Source: Bacteroidota bacterium
Lineage (GTDB): Bacteria; Bacteroidota; Bacteroidia; SXHM01
DNA: 32,000 bases
Direction: 5' to 3'
Assembly (NCBI GenBank): GCA_947479755.1
Contig: CANKAM010000003.1
Coordinates: 1-32,000, forward strand
This document shows positions 157 to 9,516 of this stretch, in pieces. Both the position numbers and the translations under genes were made by a program. The notes beneath the pieces were generated by a model. It worked only from the letters and a program-made list of their open reading frames with translations, had not been told where the DNA came from and did not search any database. Position 1 is the stretch's first letter. Each line of letters begins with the position of its first letter.

Positions 157-1599
157 TTATTTTTTTCTGCTGGGCAGACCTAATTTCCATCTGATCATAT
201 CAGCTATTATAGGATAGATATCATTGTGCTTTGCTCCAAATCTGAATGTTTTTGCATTGGGATCAAATGCACCTAAATCTCTATTTTTTCCTTCATCATC
301 AGTTGGTAAATATTCTTTCAATTCAACAAGTCCTTCATTGATTTTTTCCTCATCAGTAAACGTGTAAAATCGCCACATTGCATTTGTATGGGAAAAATCT
401 ACGTTAAGAATATCCTCTGTTAATTTTCTTTGATTTTCTTTTGTTTTTAGCTCTTCATTCCTGCCAAAGAAAAAATCAAAATACAACTTAGCAATAGCCT
501 TCAATAAAACTGGTTGAGCAGCGACAGTTGTAAGTTTTGAATTTTCACTAGTAATACCAGGTAGATTTAAAACTGTATCCCAATATTTCTCAGCTCCTGC
601 TACTCTACTGTCAATAATAGCAGGTAAGGCTCCGTTAATATTGGTTTTGTTTAAAAGTAGAATTGCATTTATTGCAACCAATTCTTTACGACTTAAGCCG
701 CCTTTACCCCAGTCTGATTGATCTTTTTCTTGTACATCAAAATTAGCAGAATCAAATTTATCATCAACTAATACATTTTTAATAAATTGATTAATAGGGT
801 TTGATGAATCAAATTGAAATGCTAATGATTTTTCAACTTTCTTAGTAAGATTATTTAAATCATGAAACAGCTGTTTTTCCTGATCAAGTTCTAAACCCAA
901 GTGAACATCGAGAGTAACAGTACAATATTTTAATGCTTCTAAACAATCAACCCAAACCGCTAATTCATCTGATGATAATTCTTCTTTATTTGTTGATGGA
1001 AATAAAGAAGCTTTTGAAGGATACTTATGAAATGTGGTTACATGTTTCAAAAAATCCAAAACTATTTCTGCTGCTTTTCTTCTATGTTGACCATCTACGA
1101 TCCATAAAGTATCTCCTTGATTTAAAAATATTTTATACGCTATGGTTTCAGAATCAATCGTTGTCAATGTGATAACTCTGAGATTTGTGCCATTGGGTTT
1201 GCAGTTTCTGAATGAAGCAACAATAGGGGCTATTGAAAAATATGGTTGGTTTCCTACAGTATTTATTATTTCATTTATTTTTTCATTTTCACTTGCTTCA
1301 ACTCCCTGGTTTAATCTTTTTCTACGTGCGGCACCTAGTAATCCCTTTAGAATATATTTAGCTAAGGAAGTTGCATGCGGTAGATTTAAACTTCTCTGAG
1401 AAACTCCACTTGAATTTTTTGATTGATCATTTGCTACTTCTGTAAATTGCATTAGGTCAAATAATGACATATGAATGGTAAATATTTTATTACCGCAATT
1501 TACACCAACGAATGTTTTAATTGGTTTTCCTGATGAGTTTTGATTTGATAACGCTTCTTCAAGAGTTACAAATTCACTTGAGATTGATTTTGTAGTCAT
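157..1599 (-). CDS. DGQHR-domain protein (DndB-like, ParB/Srx-type nuclease superfamily)
   Basis: ORF track 157..1653. Contains WIVDGQHRRKAAEIV (DGQHR signature) and, downstream, QLFHDLNN (DndB-type QxFxDxN). Start moved to Met19 (ATG at 1597-1599): the first 18 codons (MNYSYLLCSHINQLIINK) overlap a -7-like box (reverse complement TTACTTTG at 1631-1638) and look non-protein-like. AT-rich codon usage unlike the rest of the window. Confidence 0.8.
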   Translation of the reverse strand: MTTKSISSEFVTLEEALSNQNSSGKPIKTFVGVNCGNKIFTIHMSLFDLMQFTEVANDQSKNSSGVSQRSLNLPHATSLAKYILKGLLGAARRKRLNQGVEASENEKINEIINTVGNQPYFSIAPIVASFRNCKPNGTNLRVITLTTIDSETIAYKIFLNQGDTLWIVDGQHRRKAAEIVLDFLKHVTTFHKYPSKASLFPSTNKEELSSDELAVWVDCLEALKYCTVTLDVHLGLELDQEKQLFHDLNNLTKKVEKSLAFQFDSSNPINQFIKNVLVDDKFDSANFDVQEKDQSDWGKGGLSRKELVAINAILLLNKTNINGALPAIIDSRVAGAEKYWDTVLNLPGITSENSKLTTVAAQPVLLKAIAKLYFDFFFGRNEELKTKENQRKLTEDILNVDFSHTNAMWRFYTFTDEEKINEGLVELKEYLPTDDEGKNRDLGAFDPNAKTFRFGAKHNDIYPIIADMIRWKLGLPSRKK

Positions 1600-1660
1600 T
1601 TTGTTTATGATTAATTGGTTTATATGGCTGCAAAGTAAATAAGAATAATTCAAATATAAT

Positions 1661-1770
1661 AATCCTGGATGTAAATATATTAAACCCTGGATGTAAATAT
1701 CTGAAATCCAATTATAAAAAATTAAATTACCTGGGTGTATTATTTATTTATCCTGGGAAATATCTCTATT
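1661..1770. repeat. Four phased direct repeats, CCTGGATGTAAATAT type, on a 22-bp register
   Basis: CCTGG starts at 1664, 1686, 1730 and 1752, giving spacings of 22, 44 and 22 bp. Copies 1 and 2 share the identical 15-mer CCTGGATGTAAATAT. Copies 3 (CCTGGGTGTATTATT) and 4 (CCTGGGAAATATCTC) are degenerate. They sit immediately upstream of the DGQHR gene start. Confidence 0.7.
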
Positions 1771-1897
1771 CTCCTCCAAGTAATCCATTTCCAAATCCAA
1801 CAAAAATTCAATATCCCTTTTCCTTCTTATTAAAAGCAATCCCCTTACCCCACCCTCCTCTGTAACCACCACCACCTAATTTTGAGTAAAGATTTCC

Positions 1898-2235
1898 CCG
1901 TTGTAACCGTTACAACGGCTTTTCCAAAATCGCTACCCCCTCCATAACGGTTATCAAATAGAATCCGCAATCCGACTCGATGCTATAACGGTTATGGCCA
2001 ATCCCAGATAATCCGACTCGCCTCCATAATGGTTATGGAGCAGAATCCGCAATCCGACTCGATGCCATAACGGTTATGGCCAATCACGGATAATCCGACT
2101 CGCCTCTAACAACGGTTATGGAGTAGAATCCGTAATCCGATTCGATGCCATAACGGTTATGGCCAATCACGGTCAATCCGATTCTCCTCCATAACGGTTA
2201 TGGAGGAGAATCCCAAATCCGACTCGCTTCCATAG
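1898..2235. repeat. Array of eight odd palindromes (core CCATAAC-G-GTTATGG) at 41-bp spacing; two alternating unit types give an 82-bp super-period
   Basis: Palindrome centres are at 1908, 1949, 1990, 2031, 2072, 2114, 2155 and 2196, giving spacings of 41, 41, 41, 41, 42, 41 and 41. Perfect arms: 10 bp at 1898-1918 (CCGTTGTAAC C GTTACAACGG), 8 bp at 2064-2080 and 2147-2163 (GCCATAAC G GTTATGGC), and 16 bp at 2180-2212 (GATTCTCCTCCATAAC G GTTATGGAGGAGAATC). Each unit also carries AATCCGACTCG (starts 1969, 2010, 2051, 2092, 2134, about 2175, and 2216). Confidence 0.9.
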
Positions 2236-2267
2236 CCAAAACCGGTGTTCATGTCATTATTATAGGT

Positions 2268-2640
2268 GTTGCAGAAAAATATTTTTTGTGCTGAACAATA
2301 AATGAAATGTGGCTGCGTTAATATAAGTAGAGATGCTTCGACAAGCTCAGCATGACATCAACAAAAAAAATAATTTACATGCTACACAATAAATAAAAAT
2401 AACAGGCGTTACTAATAATAGATGCTTCGACAAGCTCAGCATGACAACAACCGAAAAAATAATTTACATGCTACACAATAATAAAATAAAAGCTGCGTTA
2501 ATAAGATATACAGGCATCAGATTACTGAACATAAAAAAAGGGAATAAAAAAATATTTTTTGCTCTACACAATAAATAAAAAACAACAGCGTTAATACTAT
2601 TAAAGATAAGGGCGACTGCCCTCACTAAAAGAAAACTAAA
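2268..2640. repeat. Four tandem ~90-bp AT-rich units (promoter-like A/T palindrome + CTACACAATAAATAAAA + GCGTTAATA + short hairpin)
   Basis: The ACAAT core starts at 2295, 2386, 2475 and 2568 (periods 91, 89, 93). GCGTTA is at 2315, 2406, 2495 and 2588. Units 1 and 2 end with the identical REP-like 27-mer AGATGCTTCGACAAGCTCAGCATGACA (2330-2356 and 2420-2446). Unit 4 ends with the hairpin AGGGC-GACT-GCCCT (2608-2622) and runs into the CA-rich leader of the 2680 ORF. Units 1 and 4 carry AAAAATATTTTTTG (one mismatch to TAnnTTTG). Confidence 0.8.
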
Positions 2641-2679
2641 CAATTAAGTTACAAAACAAAAACAAACAAAACAATCAAA

Positions 2680-3666
2680 ATGAGCACACCAGTTTTTTCT
2701 TTCACAGAAAACCCGTTTGATAACGGAACAAAAACCAGCAAAAAGAAAATGAACATTATAGCCGGAGACCATGTAAGTAAATTACATTCTCAAATGGCTA
2801 ACCCGCTTATCGCGGTGCTGTATGCCTTCTTCAATCCCATCCGGCAAAACTTCCTCAATAAATATTCGCAATGGATATCCGTGTCTGCTGCATATCATGG
2901 AGCCACGGTGGCTTTGGAGTTGCTGATGGCTCAGCTGAGGGGAGATAAGATAGAGGACTTTGATATACGTGTGCAGGTTGTTTATAAAAGAGGAACACCA
3001 CAATATGCTGCCTTGTTTCCTAACTTCCGTATTCCTTTTCAATCGGGCGGGTATGATGAAAGAATAGCCAAGCTCAAAGCGCTGGGCGAAGGGATGGATG
3101 TTGACCCTGCGTTTGCACTCATTAAAGCAGATGTGGATGCTTTTTACTTACTTATTTTTAATGCCCGTGATGCGCAGCAGGACCTGGAAGGATCAAAACA
3201 ATTTGTTTCAGATGAACTGGAGTTGCTGAGAATAGTTACTGCACAGGCGATGTATTATACACTGGGCGGATTGATGCAGGTGTTCAGCGTAAATACATTT
3301 CAGATTACCATGTTCTATGACCTTGAAACCCTGCGCGGACATATAACAGATACCATTGACCTGATCTTTGACGGTCCTGCAAATGGCAACACCATTGTAA
3401 ACGTGCTTGGCCCTGATGTATTACAATATCTTGCCGGTGTTACCCTGCGCATAAAAAACACAACAGCCGGTCCTGCTATTGGCGGCTTGTTTTTCTACGC
3501 TGCCGATAACGCTACTGACGGCTGGAACGGTCTTGGTCAGCAACTGAACCCCGGTGAGGAGGCTATCATCACACTCACTGCTGCACAATTCAGAGCATTC
3601 TTTAATGTGCAGAACCAGGGGCCAAATTTGCAGACTTACGAGGTGGAGATTATGTTGCCTGAGTAA
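2680..3666 (+). CDS. Hypothetical protein, 328 aa, no family recognised (helical N-terminal ~220 aa, beta-rich C-terminal ~100 aa; no signal peptide)
   Basis: ORF track. Long clean ORF with the base composition of the host part of the window. Preceded by the unstructured leader ACAAAACAAAAACAAACAAAACAATCAAA-ATG, typical of well-translated Bacteroidota genes. A terminator lies downstream at 3826-3872. Confidence 0.7.
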   Translation: MSTPVFSFTENPFDNGTKTSKKKMNIIAGDHVSKLHSQMANPLIAVLYAFFNPIRQNFLNKYSQWISVSAAYHGATVALELLMAQLRGDKIEDFDIRVQVVYKRGTPQYAALFPNFRIPFQSGGYDERIAKLKALGEGMDVDPAFALIKADVDAFYLLIFNARDAQQDLEGSKQFVSDELELLRIVTAQAMYYTLGGLMQVFSVNTFQITMFYDLETLRGHITDTIDLIFDGPANGNTIVNVLGPDVLQYLAGVTLRIKNTTAGPAIGGLFFYAADNATDGWNGLGQQLNPGEEAIITLTAAQFRAFFNVQNQGPNLQTYEVEIMLPE

Positions 3667-3668
3667 TA

Positions 3669-3730
3669 ACACTTCGACAGGCTCAGTGTGACTACGGTGT
3701 AGGGGTCATCCTGAGCTTGTCGAAGGAGTG
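3669..3730. repeat. REP-like inverted pair forming a long hairpin (CTTCGACAGGCTCAG ... CTGAGCTTGTCGAAG)
   Basis: 3672-3686 pairs with 3711-3725 over 15 bp with one G-T wobble. Same family as the single copies at 2330-2356 and 2420-2446. Confidence 0.75.
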
Positions 3731-3734
3731 TGAT

Positions 3735-3810
3735 GGTAAATAAATGAGTATTGATATACTGTTGTCTGCTAAACAACAGCGCTAAGGGCGGCCCCTAAAA
3801 AAACTAAACC
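3735..3810. repeat. Fifth, degenerate copy of the ~90-bp unit, downstream of the 328-aa ORF
   Basis: GGTAAATAAATGA (compare unit 1, ACAATAAATGAAA). 3771-3809, AAACAACAGCGCTAAGGGCGGCCCCTAAAAAAACTAAAC, shares the exact strings AACAACAGCG, TAAGGGCG and AAACTAAAC with 2578-2641 of unit 4. Confidence 0.5.
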
Positions 3811-3825
3811 CGGGTTGCACTTACA

Positions 3826-3872
3826 AAAAGCCCCTTAGCTCTACAACGGTAGAGCGGGGGGTTTTCTTTTTT
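3826..3872. terminator. Bidirectional intrinsic terminator between convergent genes
   Basis: AAAAAGCCCC-TTA-GCTCTAC-AACG-GTAGAGC-G-GGGGG followed by TTTTCTTTTTT on the + strand. The complementary strand has the same stem followed by CTTTTTG. Confidence 0.6.
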
Positions 3873-3947
3873 CGTCATTGCGAGGGTTTTTCACCCGAAG
3901 CAATCTGTTTCAAATTGTGAGATTGCTTCGCTTCGCTCGCAATGACG
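3873..3947. repeat. REP-like long hairpin (CGTCATTGCGAG ... CTCGCAATGACG family)
   Basis: 3873-3884 pairs with 3936-3947. An inner stem CGAAGCAATCT / AGATTGCTTCG is also present. It abuts the stop codon of the cyclase gene and is followed by TTTTT on the + strand. Confidence 0.7.
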
Positions 3948-3950
3948 TTT

Positions 3951-5744
3951 TTATTTCACCTCCACAAAATACATCTCCACTTCACCCTTGCCCTTTGCTT
4001 TTATTTTTCCGCGCGTTGTGCAGTTGAATTTCTTTTTCACCAGTTCATACGTAGCACCTGAGATATTTATTTTTCCTGCTTCGCCACTGCTTTCCATGCG
4101 CGATGCGGTGTTTACGGTATCGCCCCAGATATCGTAAGCAAACTTTTTAGTACCTACCACTCCGGCAACCACAGGTCCGGTATGTATTCCAATGCGTACA
4201 TCAAAAAAGTGCTGCTTCTTTTTCTGGCGTTCTTTTTTCAGCTTGTTCAGAAAGTCAAGCATTTCAATTGCTGCTTTAATAACATCAACAGCATTGGTTT
4301 TATTAGCTGTTGGCAAGCCTCCGGCACACATGTAGCTGTCACCGATTGTTTTTATTTTCTCTACATTATACTTTGGCAATATGCGGTCGAACGCACCAAA
4401 GATCATATCCAGTTCACTTACCAATTCCTCGGCTGATAATTTTTCGGCCTGCTCGGTAAAGCCTTTGAAATCCGTAAAAAGAACGCTTACCATTTTGTAT
4501 TTGCGCGGAGCAACACGTGCATTTTTCTTCAACTCTTCGGCAACCTCAGCAGGAAGAATATTCAGCAACAACTCATCTGACTTGCGTTTTTCTTCAGTAA
4601 TAACTTTGCTCTGCTTTTGAATTTTATCGTTCTTCTTTTTCAGCTCAACGTTGCGCAGTTTAAAAATCTCTGCTTCTCTGCGGCTCTTTTCTGTTTCGTA
4701 TCCTGTTACCAGTTCATTAAGTCTGTTGCGCGCTTCCTGACTGAACAGTTCATCGTGCAACTGAAAAAATTTCAGATGGTTTTTGTAGGCTTCTTCATAA
4801 TCACCAACCTTTGCATAACTCTGCGAAATCTCTTTGTAAATATCTTTTTCAAGAGGTTTTGCATTGGAGTTGGCAATCAGGTCTAAGGCAATTTTCTGAT
4901 ACTTCACCGCATTCTTCTGGTCCCCTTTTGCGCGATACAGATTTCCGATATTACTGTAAGTTGATGCAATGCCTTTGGTATCGCCAATGCTTTCTTTCAG
5001 CATTACCGATTTCATAAAATACTTGAGCGCATCATCAAATTTTCCCTGCTTCTCATAAACTAATCCAATGTTGTTGGTAATGAGCGAGAGGTTTTTTTTG
5101 TCACCAATTCCTTCAGCAATTTCCAGCGCTTTTTTGTTGTATTCAATTGCTTTGCTGTCGTTACCTGTTTGCCTGTGAATGTTGGCAATATTGCCCAACA
5201 CCATTATCAACCCTGAGGTTTCTTTTGCTTTGTTATTTATCTCCAATGCTTTTTCAAAATACTGAAGCGCTTTGTTAAACTCGCCCTGCACTTTATACAA
5301 TACTCCCAGGTTGTTATTGGCCGATGCCATTCCTTTCTTGTCATCAATCTCTTCAAATATTTTAAGGGCTTGCATGTGGGCATCCAGCGAGCCGTCCATG
5401 GAGCCTTTGCTCTTGTTCACCACTCCGCTGGCATTAAGCGATTCGGCCATCTGCTTTTTCATCTTCAGCCCCGAATAATAATCGCTGGCTTTATGCAAAT
5501 GGTCAAGAGCAGAGTTGATATTGCTTTGATTGAAATAGGCAATACCTAAATTATAATGACATTCGGCTGCGCCTTTTTTGTAACCCTTTTTTTCGGATTG
5601 AGCTAAAGCTGCAAGAGCCAGTTCAATGCTTTGTGCCGCATTTTCCTGACGCAGTTGTATGGCCTGTTTAATAAGCCCGTCAACATCAGGGCTTGTTTTC
5701 TTTATCACGGGTTTCAGATATACCTTCTTTTCTGTCATAAACAT
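3951..5744 (-). CDS. TPR-repeat sensor fused to a class III adenylate/guanylate cyclase domain
   Basis: The N-terminal ~330 aa are TPR repeats (NLGVLYKVQGEFNKALQYFEKAL and similar), followed by a coiled coil. The C-terminus carries FTDFKGFT...IKTIGDSYMCAGGLP...VRIGIHTGPVVAGVVGTKKFAYDIWGDTVNTASRMES, the classic class III cyclase motifs. Confidence 0.9.
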   Translation of the reverse strand: MFMTEKKVYLKPVIKKTSPDVDGLIKQAIQLRQENAAQSIELALAALAQSEKKGYKKGAAECHYNLGIAYFNQSNINSALDHLHKASDYYSGLKMKKQMAESLNASGVVNKSKGSMDGSLDAHMQALKIFEEIDDKKGMASANNNLGVLYKVQGEFNKALQYFEKALEINNKAKETSGLIMVLGNIANIHRQTGNDSKAIEYNKKALEIAEGIGDKKNLSLITNNIGLVYEKQGKFDDALKYFMKSVMLKESIGDTKGIASTYSNIGNLYRAKGDQKNAVKYQKIALDLIANSNAKPLEKDIYKEISQSYAKVGDYEEAYKNHLKFFQLHDELFSQEARNRLNELVTGYETEKSRREAEIFKLRNVELKKKNDKIQKQSKVITEEKRKSDELLLNILPAEVAEELKKNARVAPRKYKMVSVLFTDFKGFTEQAEKLSAEELVSELDMIFGAFDRILPKYNVEKIKTIGDSYMCAGGLPTANKTNAVDVIKAAIEMLDFLNKLKKERQKKKQHFFDVRIGIHTGPVVAGVVGTKKFAYDIWGDTVNTASRMESSGEAGKINISGATYELVKKKFNCTTRGKIKAKGKGEVEMYFVEVK

Positions 5745-5849: not shown

Positions 5850-6719
5850 ATGAATAAGCTATTTCATATAACAGCCCTGCTATTAGGCCTTACTACGCTG
5901 ATTGTTTCGTGCAATAACGATGATGAAGGCGATGACCTGAATGCCGTTTACAACAATGCTGCTTCGCAAACAACTTATAACGATGTGGCCAGCATTGGTG
6001 ATGAGTCGGTTATTGATGATGACCTGAGTTCATTTAAAATGGAGGACATGGAAAAGATTTCTTCGCCCTGCGCTACCATAACTAAAGGCGATACCAATGA
6101 TTTGCCTAATGTTACCACTATTGATTTTGGCAGCACCAACTGCCTGTGCAACGATGGCAAAAACCGCAGAGGCAAAATTGTGATGAACCACCCACCGCCT
6201 TCTTTAGCCAGAGATTCCGGGGCACTTTTTCATCATGAATTTATTGACTTTTATGTAAACGATAATAAGGTACTGGGCTATATTAATGTTACCAATTTCG
6301 GTTTAAGCCCTGATGGTTTTAAACATTTTAAATGGGATATTGTTGGCGGTCTTGAATTAGCCGATGGTGCAGGAACCACTTCCTGGGAGAGCCACCAGGT
6401 GATTGCTTACCTCGCAGGTTTTAACACCCCTAATACCCGTCTGGATGACAAAATTGGCATCAACGGAGGAAGCAGCGGAACCTCACAAACGGGAGAAACC
6501 TTTACAGCTCAAATCGATTCATTAAATCCGTTGAGGCGAAGTTTTTCAATAGGCTGCCGCAAACACTTTTTTGCGGGAACGGCTTTTATTACTCCTCAGG
6601 GCAAACCGATGCGTACCATTAATTATGGTGAAGCTAACCCCGAAATATGCGATGATGTGGCTACCGTTACAGTAAACGGAAATACCTATACCATCAGCCT
6701 GGATAATACACACGAGTAG
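5850..6719 (+). CDS. Lipoprotein of unknown function
   Basis: Signal peptide with lipobox MNKLFHITALLLGLTTLIVS-C, followed by an Asp-rich linker. No family recognised. Confidence 0.75.
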   Translation: MNKLFHITALLLGLTTLIVSCNNDDEGDDLNAVYNNAASQTTYNDVASIGDESVIDDDLSSFKMEDMEKISSPCATITKGDTNDLPNVTTIDFGSTNCLCNDGKNRRGKIVMNHPPPSLARDSGALFHHEFIDFYVNDNKVLGYINVTNFGLSPDGFKHFKWDIVGGLELADGAGTTSWESHQVIAYLAGFNTPNTRLDDKIGINGGSSGTSQTGETFTAQIDSLNPLRRSFSIGCRKHFFAGTAFITPQGKPMRTINYGEANPEICDDVATVTVNGNTYTISLDNTHE

Positions 6720-6812: not shown

Positions 6813-7931
6813 CTACTTCTTATCCGTTTCTTCCACAAACCCCTTCCATCTTTTCATGTAATTGATAAAAACGGGGCTCAGGTCTTGCTCTTTAAGATGC
6901 TGAACGGAGTAAGGCTGCGGAGCAGGCTGCACGGTAAAGTCTTTTACCAACGTGGGCCAGTTGGCATGTGCTATGGCTGCCATGCCTATGGCTACAATAT
7001 CGGCACCCAGTTCAATTGCTTTTTCGGCATCGCTGCGGCTCCGGATAATACCGGCTACAATAATGGGTGTGTGGGGCAGCGCCTCCCGGAAATAGGTGAT
7101 AAGGGCTTTATCACCATCAGCATATTTATCGGGTTTTTTAAAGGCATCCCAGGGCGAGAGGTGGATGTAAGCGGCACCATCGGCAGCCAGCCATTGCGCC
7201 ACCAGAAGACTTTCGTCAAAATCAATTCCTTTAAAGGTGTATTTATCTTCGGGCGAAAGGCGCACGCCTACCAAAAAGTTTTTGGAGGTAACGGCTTTTA
7301 TTTTTTGAAGAATGGTGCGCAACAGGCGGCTTCGGTTTTCAAGCGAACCACCCCACTCATCACTGCGCTGATTGGTAGCCGTACTTAAAAACTGATGCAG
7401 CAGGTAGCCGTGAGCTCCGTGCAGTTCTACTCCGTCAAAGCCTGCCTGTTCGGCCCTTTTAGCGGCTGATACAAAATCTGCTATCGCACGGTTAATGTCA
7501 TCGGTTGTTGCTTCGCGCACCTCAACCGGTGTTTTGGGGTGAGGCATGGTGTGGGCACTGGCGCTCCAGGGTTGTGTGCCGGTACATTCCTGCGGGCTGC
7601 GGGCACCGCCATGAAAAATCTGAACAAGGGCAAGACTGTTATAGGTATGAATACCAGCTGCAAGGCGGGTAAGGCCGGGGAGATGGCTATCGTGAGCAAT
7701 GCCCAGTTCTCCATGCCAGCCTTTGCCGTCTTCTGCTACATAAGCGGCACAGGTACAGATCAATCCGAAGCCTTCTTTAGCCCTGCGTTGAAGCCATTTA
7801 AATTCGTCATCACTCAATGTGCCGTCATTATTACTCTGCAGATTGGTAAGGGGAGCCAGTGCAATGCGATTGGGCATTGTTTTGTCTGTATCATTAAAAC
7901 GGAAAGGGCTAAACAGTTTGGAGGAGGACAT
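6813..7931 (-). CDS. NADH:flavin oxidoreductase, Old Yellow Enzyme family
   Basis: IALAPLTN...GFGLICTCAAYV...GFDGVELHGAHGYLLHQFLS...NQRSDEWGGSLENRSRLL are OYE/NemA-type motifs. Length 372 aa. Confidence 0.9.
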   Translation of the reverse strand: MSSSKLFSPFRFNDTDKTMPNRIALAPLTNLQSNNDGTLSDDEFKWLQRRAKEGFGLICTCAAYVAEDGKGWHGELGIAHDSHLPGLTRLAAGIHTYNSLALVQIFHGGARSPQECTGTQPWSASAHTMPHPKTPVEVREATTDDINRAIADFVSAAKRAEQAGFDGVELHGAHGYLLHQFLSTATNQRSDEWGGSLENRSRLLRTILQKIKAVTSKNFLVGVRLSPEDKYTFKGIDFDESLLVAQWLAADGAAYIHLSPWDAFKKPDKYADGDKALITYFREALPHTPIIVAGIIRSRSDAEKAIELGADIVAIGMAAIAHANWPTLVKDFTVQPAPQPYSVQHLKEQDLSPVFINYMKRWKGFVEETDKK

Positions 7932-8073: not shown

Positions 8074-9516
8074 ATGCACCGCAGAGATTTTATCAATAAA
8101 AACACCTTGGCTCTGGGCGCCTTAAGTCTGGTTTCGGCTAAGTCAATAGCGCTTGAACTTTTCCTGAAAGAAGAATTAATAAGCAAGCGCCCTCCTCTTG
8201 AAAAAAGAACCTTTACCAGCAAGGCTGTTGAAGCACAACTGAGCGAAGTAAAAGCAGCCATAAAAGATAAAGAATTGGCCTGGTTGTTTGAGAATTGCTA
8301 TCCCAATACCTTAGACACTACGGTTGATTACGAGCCCATAAACGGCAACCCCGATACCTTTATTATTACCGGTGATATTGATGCGATGTGGCTGCGCGAT
8401 TCAACGGCACAGGTATGGCCCTATATTCCGCTTATTGCAAAAGATGATGAATTGAAAAACCTGGTAAAGGGGCTCATAAGCCGTCAGGCAAAATGTGTTT
8501 TAAAAGACCCGTATGCCAATGCGTTTTATAAAGACCTGAACAAAAAATCGGAATGGAAGAATGATAAACCTAAACCTCAGCACGGAGTGCACGAACGCAA
8601 ATGGGAAATTGATTCGCTCTGCTATTTTATAAGGCTTTCTAACCGCTATTATGAATTAACGGGTGATGCAACAGTGTTTGACAGCGAATGGAACGAAGCG
8701 GCACGCACGGTAGTAAAAACTTTCCGCACCGAGCAGCGCAGTGATGGCACCTCACCCTATTATTTTATCCGCAAATCCTTTAATCCCATTGATGCACCTG
8801 TAAACGATGGTAAAGGAAATCCTGTAAAATTTACCGGCATGATTTGTTCTATGTTCCGCCCTTCTGATGATGCTACTACTTATCCGTATTTAATCCCCTC
8901 GAATATTTTTGCGGTGCTTTCACTCAGGCAACTTTCTGTAATTTATAACACGGTGTTAAAAGATGAAGCATTTGCCAATGAATGTGCATCCTTTGCCGAT
9001 GAGGTAGATGCCGCCATTAAAAAAAGTGCGGTAATACACCACCCCACCCTGGGGGAATTATATGCTTATGAAGTGGATGGTTTTGGCAAGCAACTTTTAA
9101 TGGACGATGCCAATGTTCCTTCGCTTATTTCGCTCACCTATTTAGGCGCTCATAAACCCGATGATGCTATTTATAAAAACACAAGAGCTTTTGTATTAAG
9201 CGGTGAAAACCCCTATTACTTCAAAGGCAAAGCAGCCGAAGGACAGGGTAGTCCGCATACAGGAAATAATCAGATATGGCCAATGGGAATTATTCTGCGT
9301 GCCCTCACCAGCACAGACACAAATGAAATACGCCAGTGCTTAACAATGCTGAAACATACCCATGCAGGTACGGGCTTTATGCACGAATCATTTGATAAAA
9401 ATAATCCCGTTGATTTTTCACGCAAATGGTTTGCCTGGGCAAACACATTGTTTGGTGAGCTGATGGTAAAACTCTATACCGAGCACAGGGAATTGCTGGA
9501 AGCGGAGTATGAGTAA
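8074..9516 (+). CDS. Glycoside hydrolase family 125-like (DUF1237, exo-alpha-1,6-mannosidase type), probably Tat-exported
   Basis: ITGDIDAMWLRDSTAQVWPY matches the TGDIxAMWLRDS motif I associate with GH125/DUF1237. The length fits. The N-terminus MHRRDFINKNTLALGALSL resembles a twin-arginine signal. Confidence 0.75.
   Translation: MHRRDFINKNTLALGALSLVSAKSIALELFLKEELISKRPPLEKRTFTSKAVEAQLSEVKAAIKDKELAWLFENCYPNTLDTTVDYEPINGNPDTFIITGDIDAMWLRDSTAQVWPYIPLIAKDDELKNLVKGLISRQAKCVLKDPYANAFYKDLNKKSEWKNDKPKPQHGVHERKWEIDSLCYFIRLSNRYYELTGDATVFDSEWNEAARTVVKTFRTEQRSDGTSPYYFIRKSFNPIDAPVNDGKGNPVKFTGMICSMFRPSDDATTYPYLIPSNIFAVLSLRQLSVIYNTVLKDEAFANECASFADEVDAAIKKSAVIHHPTLGELYAYEVDGFGKQLLMDDANVPSLISLTYLGAHKPDDAIYKNTRAFVLSGENPYYFKGKAAEGQGSPHTGNNQIWPMGIILRALTSTDTNEIRQCLTMLKHTHAGTGFMHESFDKNNPVDFSRKWFAWANTLFGELMVKLYTEHRELLEAEYE

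Follow-up and report, generated by a model that had tools for sequence, protein, structure and literature searches.

A patchily distributed family of signal-less two-domain proteins encoded beside phased DNA arrays in a Bacteroidota genome

The focal gene and its encoded protein

The window, by which we mean the whole 32,000-nt stretch analysed, contains on its forward strand an ATG-initiated ORF of 328 amino acids at positions 2680–3666, exactly as the original prediction had described it. The features at the locus are as follows.

1785–1942 (+): conserved non-coding block, 91% identical to the syntenic ortholog L002
1939–2234 (no strand): phased tandem array of 7.2 units of 41 bp, TRF score 436
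2275–2640 (+): four units of ~90 bp (direct-repeat family D2/D3), 85–100% identical to L049
2594–2679 (+): putative 5' leader with the hairpin GGGC-GACT-GCCC (2610–2621), followed by a G-free A/C-rich tract
2680–2715 (+): conserved N-terminal peptide, codons 1–12, 92% identical to the syntenic orthologs L049, L002, and C58
2716–3309 (+): hypervariable helical-bundle core, codons 13–210, with 36–68% nucleotide identity to L049
3310–3354 (+): linker with a near-invariant FYDLETLRG junction, codons 211–225, conserved in alignments A1 and A2
3355–3666 (+): constant beta-sandwich module, codons 226–328 plus the stop codon, 92% identical to L049
3673–3725 (no strand): REP-like inverted repeat (I2, I4), a dispersed element with many copies genome-wide
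3729–3810 (+): unit-like leader copy after the ORF (..AACAACAGCGCTAAGGGCGGCCCCTAAAAAAACTAAAC..; direct repeats D5, D7)
3830–3872 (+): terminator-like hairpin GCCCCTTAGCTC..GAGCGGGGGG with a T-run, read from the sequence and conserved in L002

Because both domains are under purifying selection (omega 0.14–0.24), the ORF is a real gene, and it encodes a non-enzymatic, acidic two-domain protein (pI 4.9, net charge −10; N-domain pI 5.6). The signal peptide and transmembrane segments said to be absent were indeed absent: the highest 19-residue Kyte–Doolittle mean was 1.38, at residue 144, and the N-region was not hydrophobic. The proposed division into a helical N-terminal and a beta-rich C-terminal part was borne out by the AlphaFold2 model (pLDDT 89.1, pTM 0.73). 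In this model, the N-domain is predicted to be an elongated helical bundle (approximately residues 12–220) with two helices of ~60 residues (42–101 and 143–201), and the C-domain an 8-strand jelly-roll-like beta-sandwich (residues 229–325). The pLDDT of the core exceeded 90.

The statement that the protein carries no recognisable motif agreed with our searches, which returned no match at E ≤ 1 in Pfam, NCBIfam, PHROGs, or PADLOC and nothing meaningful among the PDB sequences. The profile and sequence libraries gave nothing for the short-form relatives or the sister clusters either. When the N-domain alone was used in a fold search, the best match had an E value of 0.14 and the matches were generic coiled coils, with no fold relative in the PDB; with the whole model as the query, the only matches were weak ones to jelly-rolls, and no nucleic-acid-binding fold appeared for either the protein or its N-domain. 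The C-domain weakly resembled PirA (E = 2e-3, TM 0.58), cupins, and Ena2A. These jelly-rolls (PDB 3X0T, 9I0Y, and others) likewise form 8-strand sandwiches of ~100 residues (TM 0.46–0.6); however, all the Foldseek E values were >1e-3, identity was 8–17%, there was no sequence-level link, and the likeness is one of common fold class only. No evidence of a type IX secretion (T9SS) cargo was found: the N-terminus contained neither a Sec signal peptide nor a hydrophobic region, Pfam and NCBIfam gave no match at E ≤ 1 to a T9SS C-terminal domain (Por_Secre_tail, TIGR04183, or type-B CTD), and CTD structures did not occur among the top 50 Foldseek matches. Alignment of the clusters c2, c4, and c5 with the family in hhalign revealed no link, although these small alignments were too insensitive for such a comparison. 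A cargo of an injection system or T6SS was rejected because the 99.6%-complete genome contained no match to the sheath (Phage_sheath_1, PF04984) or to VipB (PF05943), and a phage or plasmid origin was also rejected, as tblastn found nothing in 50,697 phage and 72,556 plasmid records. In the literature searched, neither the family nor its pairing with arrays was described. These results support the view that the protein falls outside all described families.

The gene had been described as flanked by repeats on both sides. This was correct upstream, where the array lies, whereas the downstream side carries no array but one leader-like unit, REP-like hairpins, and a terminator. The leader-like copy was 95–100% identical to that of L049 and 76–93% identical to that of L002, and the terminator had been missed by a simple hairpin scan because its loop is >8 nt. 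The ParB- or DndB-like neighbour (PF14072, 2e-31), which had been named as part of the context of the gene, is unrelated and not a partner: only assemblies of the same strain had it beside the array. No DndB/DGQHR-like gene occurred beside the homologues and paralogues, the homologues adjoin unrelated genes, and a ParB/DndB-linked system was rejected because adjacency to the array or to a family gene is not conserved. The conserved neighbour of the focal gene is instead the downstream gene encoding a TPR-guanylate cyclase.

The family and its upstream phased arrays

Rather than the single effector of this locus, as had been suggested, the ORF is one of approximately 21 paralogues, nearly every one of which has an array of its own (21 family matches in its own 3.9-Mb genome, including one paralogue with an in-frame stop). 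Family members were found in four of the five genomes of the genus and in 10 of 301 Bacteroidota genomes, a patchy distribution but a multi-copy one where the family is present, and 1,501 clusters were retrieved from a library of 1.8 billion proteins (E ≤ 1e-3). A pattern scan detected only nine loci in genome contigs and three in metagenome contigs, low counts attributable to the use of one C-terminal peptide pattern as the query. Furthermore, the arrays break metagenome assemblies exactly at the family genes, so the family is under-sampled. The family is large and unnamed, has a patchy distribution, and has expanded locally, and its copies are dispersed, monocistronic, and situated beside housekeeping genes. 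The N-terminal motif F.N.TK.SYKKM is retained in types A and B, and short-form relatives can be reached with profile A1. In relatives, PKD, CarboxypepD_reg, FN3-like, or LRR modules or a Pro/acid-rich tail either take the place of the C-domain or accompany it; Pro-rich linkers also occur, and no enzyme domain was detected among these module fusions. A signal-less helical N-domain, an Ig-like C-module, and an upstream array in whole helical turns, the features by which we informally delimit the class, were all present.

The array of the focal gene has a super-period of 82 bp, comprises repeat families and inverted repeats, and contains the dyad CCATAACGGTTATGG in every unit. Directly upstream of it, the conserved non-coding block contains a dyad, CCGTTGTAAC-C-GTTACAACGG, and a TAATTTTG box. 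Compared with L002, this block is 91% identical, the flanking genes 78–82%, and the focal gene 69%, and no other copy of the block was found in the genome except for a 45-nt piece. The claim that the gene forms a unit with its upstream repeats was confirmed in that a 41-bp palindrome array occurred in all A-type relatives with available upstream sequence, with the period retained and the dyads differing. A housekeeping match combined with homologues lacking the repeats was looked for and not found. In the whole genome, helically phased tandem arrays were located upstream of 15 of the 18 assessable paralogues and of 97 of 2,908 other ORFs (odds ratio 145, p = 1.6e-19). The period followed the subfamily (41 bp in A, 42 bp in B, and 21, 42, or 63 bp in C and D), and orthologous arrays had similar copy numbers (5–10). 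The array of several paralogues ends only ~50 nt from the ATG. The ~100 arrays of the genome constitute most of its tandem repeats. So many different array sequences in one genome would demand many readers or an unusual one, a point against the explanation that we favour below.

At the paired positions of the arrays, we counted 37 G.T and 62 A.C pairs, which means that G.T is not enriched; the dyad loops are 0–1 nt long, half of the arrays have no stem, and the spacer motif of the array units is inverted at locus C48. The lack of a G.T excess, the loop-less dyads, and the inverted motif indicate that the arrays act as double-stranded DNA sites, and the G.U versus A.C count and the loop sizes led us to reject RNA hairpins as an explanation of the palindromes. 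The paralogues are monocistronic, and each is coupled to a phased array of such sites of its own. In four independent assemblies with the same allele, a sample biased toward identical alleles, the upstream region was 99.9–100% identical with five exact dyad cores in each, and no copy-number polymorphism of the array was observed. Arrays that are identical in independent assemblies do not make a switch role visible as variation, and this also counts against the favoured explanation.

Phased repeats are familiar from partition centromeres, such as sopC of the F plasmid, with 12 units of 43 bp and an inverted repeat in each, and parC of R1 and pSK41. The arrays described here share with them tandem units of approximately four helical turns with a short dyad in each, which in the centromeres are read by a dimeric protein. 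They differ in that ~100 arrays occur per chromosome, each adjoining a non-partition gene, that no ParA or ParB is linked, and that conservation of the array does not extend to the adjacent DndB/ParB-fold gene. Bacterial non-coding arrays with a fixed period (20–23 nt) but a sequence that differs between arrays, many per genome, have been described by Subirana and Messeguer, who guessed that a protein polymerises on the array DNA (PMC8161180). A fixed period, a variable sequence, and many copies per genome are common to both sets. However, the passages of that report consulted show no link to a gene family, whereas the arrays here are tied to one protein superfamily (odds ratio 145); moreover, they occur in Bacteroidota, have periods of 21, 41, 42, and 63 bp, and carry a dyad in the A-type units.

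The ~90-bp units, for which it had been asked whether homologues always follow them, were confined to the closest lineage (the window, C58, L002, L049, L052, L053, and L059); the general feature is the phased 41-, 42-, or 21-bp array. Each unit consists of an A/T block and a promoter-like motif, ACAAT-N16-CGTTA (2295–2320, 2386–2411, 2475–2500, and 2568–2593), and REP-like hairpins lie between the units, which are four duplicated promoter-like modules. The motif with a 16- or 17-nt spacer occurred 60 times genome-wide versus 21–29 times in shuffled sequences (~23 expected); 13 of the matches precede five A-type genes, and others precede several genes for envelope proteins. Promoters of ECF (group 4) sigma factors have AAC at −35 and CGT at −10, separated by 14–17 nt (PMC5758882). 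The putative motif shares with them its bipartite form, the downstream CGT(TA) element at −10, and a rigid spacer (16/17 nt) within that range (PMC5758882), but its upstream element is ACAAT, and AAC, present in some units (GAACAAT), lies 19 nt from CGT, away from the canonical −35 distance. A motif with CGT at −10 and 16/17-nt spacing but without the canonical AAC at −35 weighs against the favoured explanation.

The transcription start that defines the leader is a putative one. The A-rich leader noted earlier proved to be real and extreme: in positions −40 to −1, the A content (0.68) was at the 99th percentile and the G content (0.03) at the 2nd percentile of the 3,006 ORFs of the genome. G-free leaders occur across the family, and such A-rich, G-free leaders favour initiation in Bacteroidia (PMC6847099). 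The 4-bp stem of the leader showed one compensatory change, in L052. The prediction of high expression, in contrast, found no support in the one proxy computed, as the CAI of 0.627 was at the 25th percentile, compared with a ribosomal-protein median of 0.755. CAI values in the family were mostly below the 40th percentile, and the GC content of the coding sequence was at the 91st percentile.

Variability of the helical core

Sliding identity to L049 was 85–100% in the 5' flank, 36–68% in the core, and 83–100% in the 3' flank, and the profile switched at linker codons 211–225. The dS of the N-domain was 1.8–3.1 versus 0.7–0.8 in the neighbouring cyclase gene, to which the dS of the C-domain was approximately equal. 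The helical core was most closely related to those of L048, C24, and L001 (65–67%), a lineage different from that of the rest of the locus. C26 and L051 were 96% identical in the core but only 74% in the C-domain, and C-domains were 57–76% identical even where the N-termini were unrelated (P0022–P0028). On the basis of the identity profile, the dS of the two domains, the mosaic relationships, and the occurrence of the C-domain on unrelated N-termini, the ~200-residue helical bundle is swapped between strains like a cassette, through homologous recombination in the conserved sequences on either side. Codons 1–12 serve as the 5' recombination flank, and the C-domain emerges from these comparisons as a constant, separately exchangeable module.

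Flagellin-type hypervariable genes have conserved termini and an extremely diverse middle (PMC7018530). Like them, the family passes abruptly from conserved ends to a middle of saturated divergence, exchanges alleles by recombination in the conserved flanks, and occurs in multiple copies without a signal peptide (PMC7018530). However, there is no relationship to flagellin in sequence or fold and no flagellin Pfam match; the variable part is helical and the C-terminal constant part a beta-sandwich, and the host phylum is generally without flagella. Surface exposure is the usual reason for such hypervariability, but in the absence of a signal peptide it has no known route here, which counts against the favoured explanation.

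Possible roles of the family

Several readings of the locus can be weighed against this evidence. It is unlikely that the protein has a structural or adhesive role and derives from a phage or particle, or that it reaches the surface by an unrecognised export route, even though signal-less proteins that bear Ig-like modules are characteristic of virions and tails. The PKD, CarboxypepD_reg, FN3-like, and LRR modules and Pro-rich linkers of the relatives, the variable region, the patchy, multi-copy distribution, the weak PirA/Ena jelly-roll resemblance, and the best BFVD matches, which are tail proteins (E = 4e-6), all point in this direction. However, the rmsd of that BFVD match is 60 Å, the phage and plasmid records gave no tblastn match and PHROGs no match, homologues of the tail sheath and of VipB are missing from the 99.6%-complete genome, and the copies are dispersed, monocistronic, and adjoin housekeeping genes. 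The CAI at the 25th percentile, the presence of the family in just 10 of 301 genomes of the phylum, the hypervariable core, and the in-frame stop in one paralogue make it improbable that the gene encodes a constitutively abundant, housekeeping-like structural protein of the cytoplasm with a strong promoter and an efficient leader, despite the extremely A-rich, G-free leader, of a kind that favours initiation in Bacteroidia (PMC6847099), and the four tandem promoter-like modules. The layout also matches that of a classical contingency locus, with a tandem repeat preceding the members of a variable multigene family. In such a locus, high-frequency changes in array copy number would switch or tune expression (phase variation), and a period of whole helical turns would preserve promoter phasing upon the gain or loss of copies. 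Nevertheless, the four same-allele assemblies were 99.9–100% identical upstream with the same five dyad cores, and orthologous arrays hold similar copy numbers (5–10); phase variation is very improbable here.

The array, the ~90-bp units, or both might instead act as RNA (a structured leader, a sponge, or small RNAs) with the protein as an RNA-binding partner. The arrays of several paralogues end ~50 nt before the ATG and are perhaps partly transcribed, the non-coding flanks are more conserved than the synonymous sites of the neighbouring gene, and the small leader hairpin has one compensatory change. We nevertheless consider a role as RNA very improbable given the lack of a G.U excess on the sense strand, loops of 0–1 nt, stemless structure in half of the arrays, one unit inverted at another locus, an acidic protein, and no match to Rfam covariance models within positions 1500–4100 at E ≤ 1 (array, units, and leader). 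The protein could also bind its own array via the variable helical core, as a locus-specific autoregulator or in a centromere- or segrosome-like complex, which would account for the different dyad at each locus. The only gene always located beside an array is the family gene, the other neighbours being unrelated; moreover, the core (65–67%) and the dyad of the window (CCATAACGGTTATGG vs CCGTAACGGTTACGG) both group with C24, L001, and L048, and the syntenic orthologs are the closest group for the intervening DNA and the DNA that follows. This mosaic had suggested that the core co-varies with its palindrome, but it represents one historical event, and the suggestion found no support among 276 locus pairs, in which array similarity correlated with the core at rho 0.45 and with the C-domain at 0.51. 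C2:64604 and L074 share 89% identical cores with only 50% array identity, the proteins are acidic, and a nucleic-acid-binding fold is lacking; binding of the protein to its own array is thus improbable.

For the function of the family, we infer, tentatively and with something short of even confidence, that the hypervariable, cassette-exchanged, and individually array-wired paralogues form a repertoire of separately controlled variants of a binding or scaffold protein. The genome would keep approximately 20 of these variants (more than 40 including the sister families). At the focal locus, the array is followed by four tandem promoter-like modules with fixed spacing and then by the G-free leader. 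The array would act as each copy's own switch, read by a putative dimeric DNA-binding factor. Expression would be conditional rather than constitutive, in line with the CAI at the 25th percentile, the family values mostly below the 40th percentile, and the GC content at the 91st percentile. The constant ends would let all variants attach to one shared partner or assembly, and diversifying pressure would act on the variable surface of the helices, as it does in repertoires of flagellins, pilins, and variable surface proteins.

A wider and more doubtful form of this repertoire explanation is a genome-wide system of ~100 individually addressable cassettes, in which a reader of locus-specific phased dyads may switch on one shuffled helix–sandwich member. 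Such a system would be a bacterial counterpart of flagellin, pilin, and VSG-like repertoires, serving recognition or evasion, and in a bolder version, the family proteins themselves would be the locus-specific readers of the arrays. If true, a sizeable share of the non-coding repeats of one bacterium (~100 arrays) and dozens of its 'hypothetical' genes would belong to one undescribed design, in which a modular, hypervariable protein without a signal peptide is paired with an operator array locked in phase. This would give a function to bacterial repeats of constant size and variable sequence, so far unexplained in print, and would define a new protein fold family with 1,500 or more clusters. 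Another gain would be a tractable case of cassette-type allelic replacement beyond the classical surface antigens.

The focal protein and its family

The ORF at 2680–3666 (+ strand) encodes 328 amino acids from an ATG start, and no rival long frame was present. As originally described, the protein contains neither a signal peptide nor a membrane segment (top 19-residue hydropathy mean, 1.38). It is acidic, with a net charge of −10 and a pI of 4.92 computed from the sequence. An AlphaFold2 model of the whole protein, built on a 23-sequence alignment, was confident (pLDDT 89.1, pTM 0.73) and placed helices at residues 12–219, dominated by two of ~60 residues (42–101 and 143–201), followed by eight strands at 229–325, in agreement with the predicted helical N-terminal and beta-rich C-terminal parts. 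Compared with three syntenic orthologs, both domains showed a purifying signal (omega = 0.14–0.24), and the ORF, as judged from its sequence, is a real gene.

The protein had no match at E ≤ 1 in Pfam, PHROGs, NCBIfam, or PADLOC, as expected from the original failure to recognize any motif. Neither the protein nor its family profile retrieved anything beyond noise from the PDB sequences, and an Rfam scan of 1500–4100 gave no match. When the whole model was searched against the PDB, no chain was found at E ≤ 1e-3; the best matches were limited to the C-domain (codons 226–328) and were small jelly-rolls, namely PirA (2e-3, TM 0.58), cupins, and Ena2A. A viral tail protein matched at 4e-6, with an rmsd of 60 A, and was unusable as a relative. 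Residues 1–225, modelled separately (pLDDT 93.3), had no structural relative in the fold search (best E 0.14), and the N-domain matched best to elongated bundles of a generic kind, among them the RipA N-domain and the haptoglobin–haemoglobin receptor of trypanosomes (TM 0.48). The structural comparison proposed earlier therefore yielded no fold relative for the helical part and a weakly jelly-roll-like C-domain.

A word-indexed search identified 28 relatives, every one annotated as "hypothetical". When a profile was run exhaustively against 1.84 billion representatives, 1,501 clusters matched at E ≤ 1e-3, of which 417 reached E ≤ 1e-30; almost all were 316–330 amino acids in length. There were 21 family matches in the window's own genome (3.9 Mb, 99.6% complete), and the family was detected in 4 of 5 other genomes of the genus and in 10 of 301 sampled Bacteroidota genomes, the carriers usually having several members. 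No relative was found in the phage and plasmid records searched. As sampled here, the family is large, unnamed, patchy, and locally expanded. No member contains a catalytic motif or enzyme domain; the fusion partners are PKD, LRR-like, or CarboxypepD_reg domains or a second N-domain. Distant members of ~230–250 amino acids, which matched no named family, consist of the helical domain alone and a Pro/acid-rich tail. The subtypes are as follows.

Subtypes of the family
A: the focal kind
B: N-domain related to that of A, different C-terminus
C: ~400 amino acids; shares the C-domain of A but has another N-part and a CarboxypepD_reg domain
D: the remaining members

One own-genome paralogue (C48:19341–20294, − strand) is interrupted by an in-frame TAA, which probably makes it a pseudogene; the congeneric ortholog (G302:C2:633837, L060) is intact, and the TTGGCRAAATGCCAA array is common to both. 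In many assemblies, the D-type paralogue P0025 (L005; own genome C2:138452–139399) faces porV-porU (T9SS) in convergent orientation, probably by coincidence, as nothing else points to a connection with the T9SS.

Genomic neighborhood and exchange of the helical core

The genes surrounding the focal ORF are as follows.

Neighboring genes in the window
157–1599, − strand: DndB/DGQHR-like gene (PF14072, 2e-31; phrog_36010, 1e-130), an orphan at the contig start
3951–5744, − strand: TPR and guanylate/adenylate-cyclase gene, a conserved neighbor in at least four genomes
5850–6719, + strand: lipoprotein-like gene (289 aa), a conserved neighbor in at least four genomes
6813–7931: OYE-like reductase, inside a ~3.4-kb insertion relative to the related locus L002 (between 6719 and 10095)
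8074–9516: 480-aa protein, inside the same insertion

The DndB/DGQHR-like gene, originally considered ParB-like and part of a meaningful context, adjoins the focal gene only in same-strain assemblies and is absent at all other homologues, so that this context did not hold. No dnd/dpd partner genes are visible within the window, and a 22-bp direct repeat (AAYCCTGGATGTAAATAT, 2.3 copies, 1652–1700) lies in the promoter region of the gene. REP-like hairpins at 3673–3725 and 3873–3950 (types CGTCATTGCGAG...CTCGCAATGACG and CTTCGACAAGCTCAGCATGAC), downstream of the focal gene, occur dispersed throughout the genome, including as insertions between the 90-bp units described below.

The main new result on the focal protein is its modular, cassette-type evolution. 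The C-terminal ~100 residues are 57–76% identical among members, even where the N-termini are unrelated. Four syntenic orthologous loci lie beside the TPR–guanylate-cyclase gene (the window, L002, L049, and L052), and the profile against L049 is a mosaic.

Nucleotide identity between the window and L049 (60-nt windows)
Upstream units: 85–100%
Codons ~13–210: 36–68%
~3317 through the C-domain and 3′ flank: 83–100%

In the same genome pairs, dS was 1.8–3.1 for the N-domain, 0.68–0.83 for the adjacent cyclase, and 0.45–0.84 for the C-domain, and dN between the window and L002 was 0.43 for the N-domain versus 0.047 for the cyclase. The identity profile and these N-domain excesses indicate that the helical core has been swapped by recombination, with codons 1–12 and the near-invariant FYDLETLRG junction serving as the conserved flanks. 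The lineage nearest to the window's core is L048/C24/L001 (65–67%), whereas in the N-peptide, promoter region, and C-domain the window shares 92% identity with L049. The reverse swap was also found: the cores of paralogue C26 and L051 are 96% identical, but their C-domains only 74%. Flagellin-type hypervariable genes show the same evolutionary pattern (PMC7018530), although they are related to the focal family in neither sequence nor fold.

Phased arrays and promoter-like units

A 41-bp unit is repeated 7.2 times at 1939–2234, each copy containing the dyad CCATAACGGTTATGG. Almost every own-genome paralogue has its own array 50–550 nt upstream, with a sequence that varies from paralogue to paralogue and a period that follows the subtype (A, 41; B, 42; C and D, 21/42/63). 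A phase-type array occurred within 900 nt upstream of 15 of 18 assessable family genes versus 97 of 2,908 other ORFs (OR 145, p = 1.6e-19). The pairing recurs in relatives and metagenome contigs, many of them broken right at the array, and no paper describing the family or this pairing was found in a literature search. The allowed periods (21, 42, 63, 84, and 105) are integer multiples of the 10.5-bp turn, which suggests that they are tied to helical phasing. The array and its copy number were identical across four independent assemblies and are therefore not an assembly artefact; this identity also argues against rapid copy-number switching. Just upstream, a 159-bp non-coding block (1785–1942) is 91% identical to L002, versus 78–82% for the flanking genes.

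Public metagenome and MAG contigs with family genes (L048, L049, L050, L051, L053, and L055) very often terminate within the array or promoter units, 200–600 nt before the start codon. Short-read assembly thus fails at the arrays, which leaves the genomic context of the family systematically under-sampled. Of the 170 tandem arrays in the own genome, 97 have a period of 21, 41, or 42, and such loci number ~94–101 (e.g., C49:11920–12574, C24:29707–30093, and C32:12556–12928). Many arrays not beside A1-family genes precede small proteins of ~230–250 amino acids with a helical N-part, a Pro-rich linker, and an FN3-like C-part (clusters c2, n = 9; c4, n = 4; c5, n = 3), and others precede helix plus CarboxypepD_reg proteins (c7, n = 3). 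An IS200/RAYT-like Y1 transposase gene adjoins the array of paralogue C18 (L001). The array geometry resembles that of sopC-type centromeres, as in plasmid partition sites, but no partition genes are linked to the focal array. Repeats of constant period and variable sequence have been published with no function assigned to them (PMC8161180).

Counted along the sense strand where dyad bases pair, G.T was not enriched (37 versus 62 A.C; 13 versus 14 in type A arrays alone), the dyad loops are mostly 0–1 nt, and about half of the arrays are stemless. A 14-nt spacer motif (GGAACGWTGGGATT) common to C26, L051, and L052 is inverted in C48, so the array unit works in either orientation. Sequence features of this kind place the action of the arrays at the level of DNA, not RNA. 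The mosaic in the window suggested that the variable core might read the dyad of its own locus. However, across 276 locus pairs, array similarity followed that of the core (rho = 0.45) no more closely than that of the C-domain (0.51), and orthologs whose cores are 89% identical can have largely different array units. Given this result, the acidity of the protein, and the absence of a nucleic-acid-binding fold, we consider such own-dyad recognition improbable.

The four 90-bp units at 2275–2640 are confined to the closest lineage (the window, C58, L002, L049, L052/L053, and L059), and homologues thus do not always follow them, a point raised in the original prediction. Each unit contains ACAAT-N16-CGTTA, and the same motif with a 16/17-nt spacer lies 45–115 nt before the ATG of the unit-less A-type genes C24, C18, and C5:52400; it occurs 60 times genome-wide versus 21–29 in shuffles. 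A rigid spacer and CGT downstream element are features shared with ECF-sigma promoters (PMC5758882), although the −35 part is not canonical. We read the units as four duplicated putative promoters, the last of which would give an ~85-nt leader; the leader contains a 4-bp hairpin with one compensatory change. The motif (N16/17) also lies 20–130 nt upstream of other genes (e.g., C24:43775, C2:41546, C14:56505, and C1:183790), whose products include several signal-peptide or lipoprotein sequences and a 1,047-aa TonB-type receptor-like protein. This is a hint that genes for envelope proteins may belong to the same regulon, the enrichment, judged by eye, not being significant.

Expression and proposed role

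The leader is A-rich, as had been noted: at −40 to −1, its A fraction (0.68) is at the 99th percentile and its G fraction (0.03) at the 2nd among 3,006 ORFs of the genome. Initiation in Bacteroidia does not use Shine–Dalgarno pairing but is modulated by A residues upstream and by a low degree of structure (PMC6847099), so a capacity for strong expression would fit both the leader and the putative tandem promoters. Despite this extreme leader, the prediction of probable high expression was not borne out by codon adaptation, which, relative to 17 ribosomal-protein genes (median 0.755), was 0.627, only the 25th percentile; most paralogues were lower still. The GC content of the CDS is 45.1% versus 40.3% for the genome (91st percentile). 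We conclude that expression of the focal gene would be conditional, not constitutively high. The original observation is thus confirmed, and its interpretation partly supported. Our best-supported reading, which we hold with somewhat less than even confidence, is that the focal protein may be a modular protein that serves in binding or as a scaffold and is expressed conditionally. It would belong to a repertoire in which recombination exchanges the helical surface, and a phased DNA operator array of its own would control each member.
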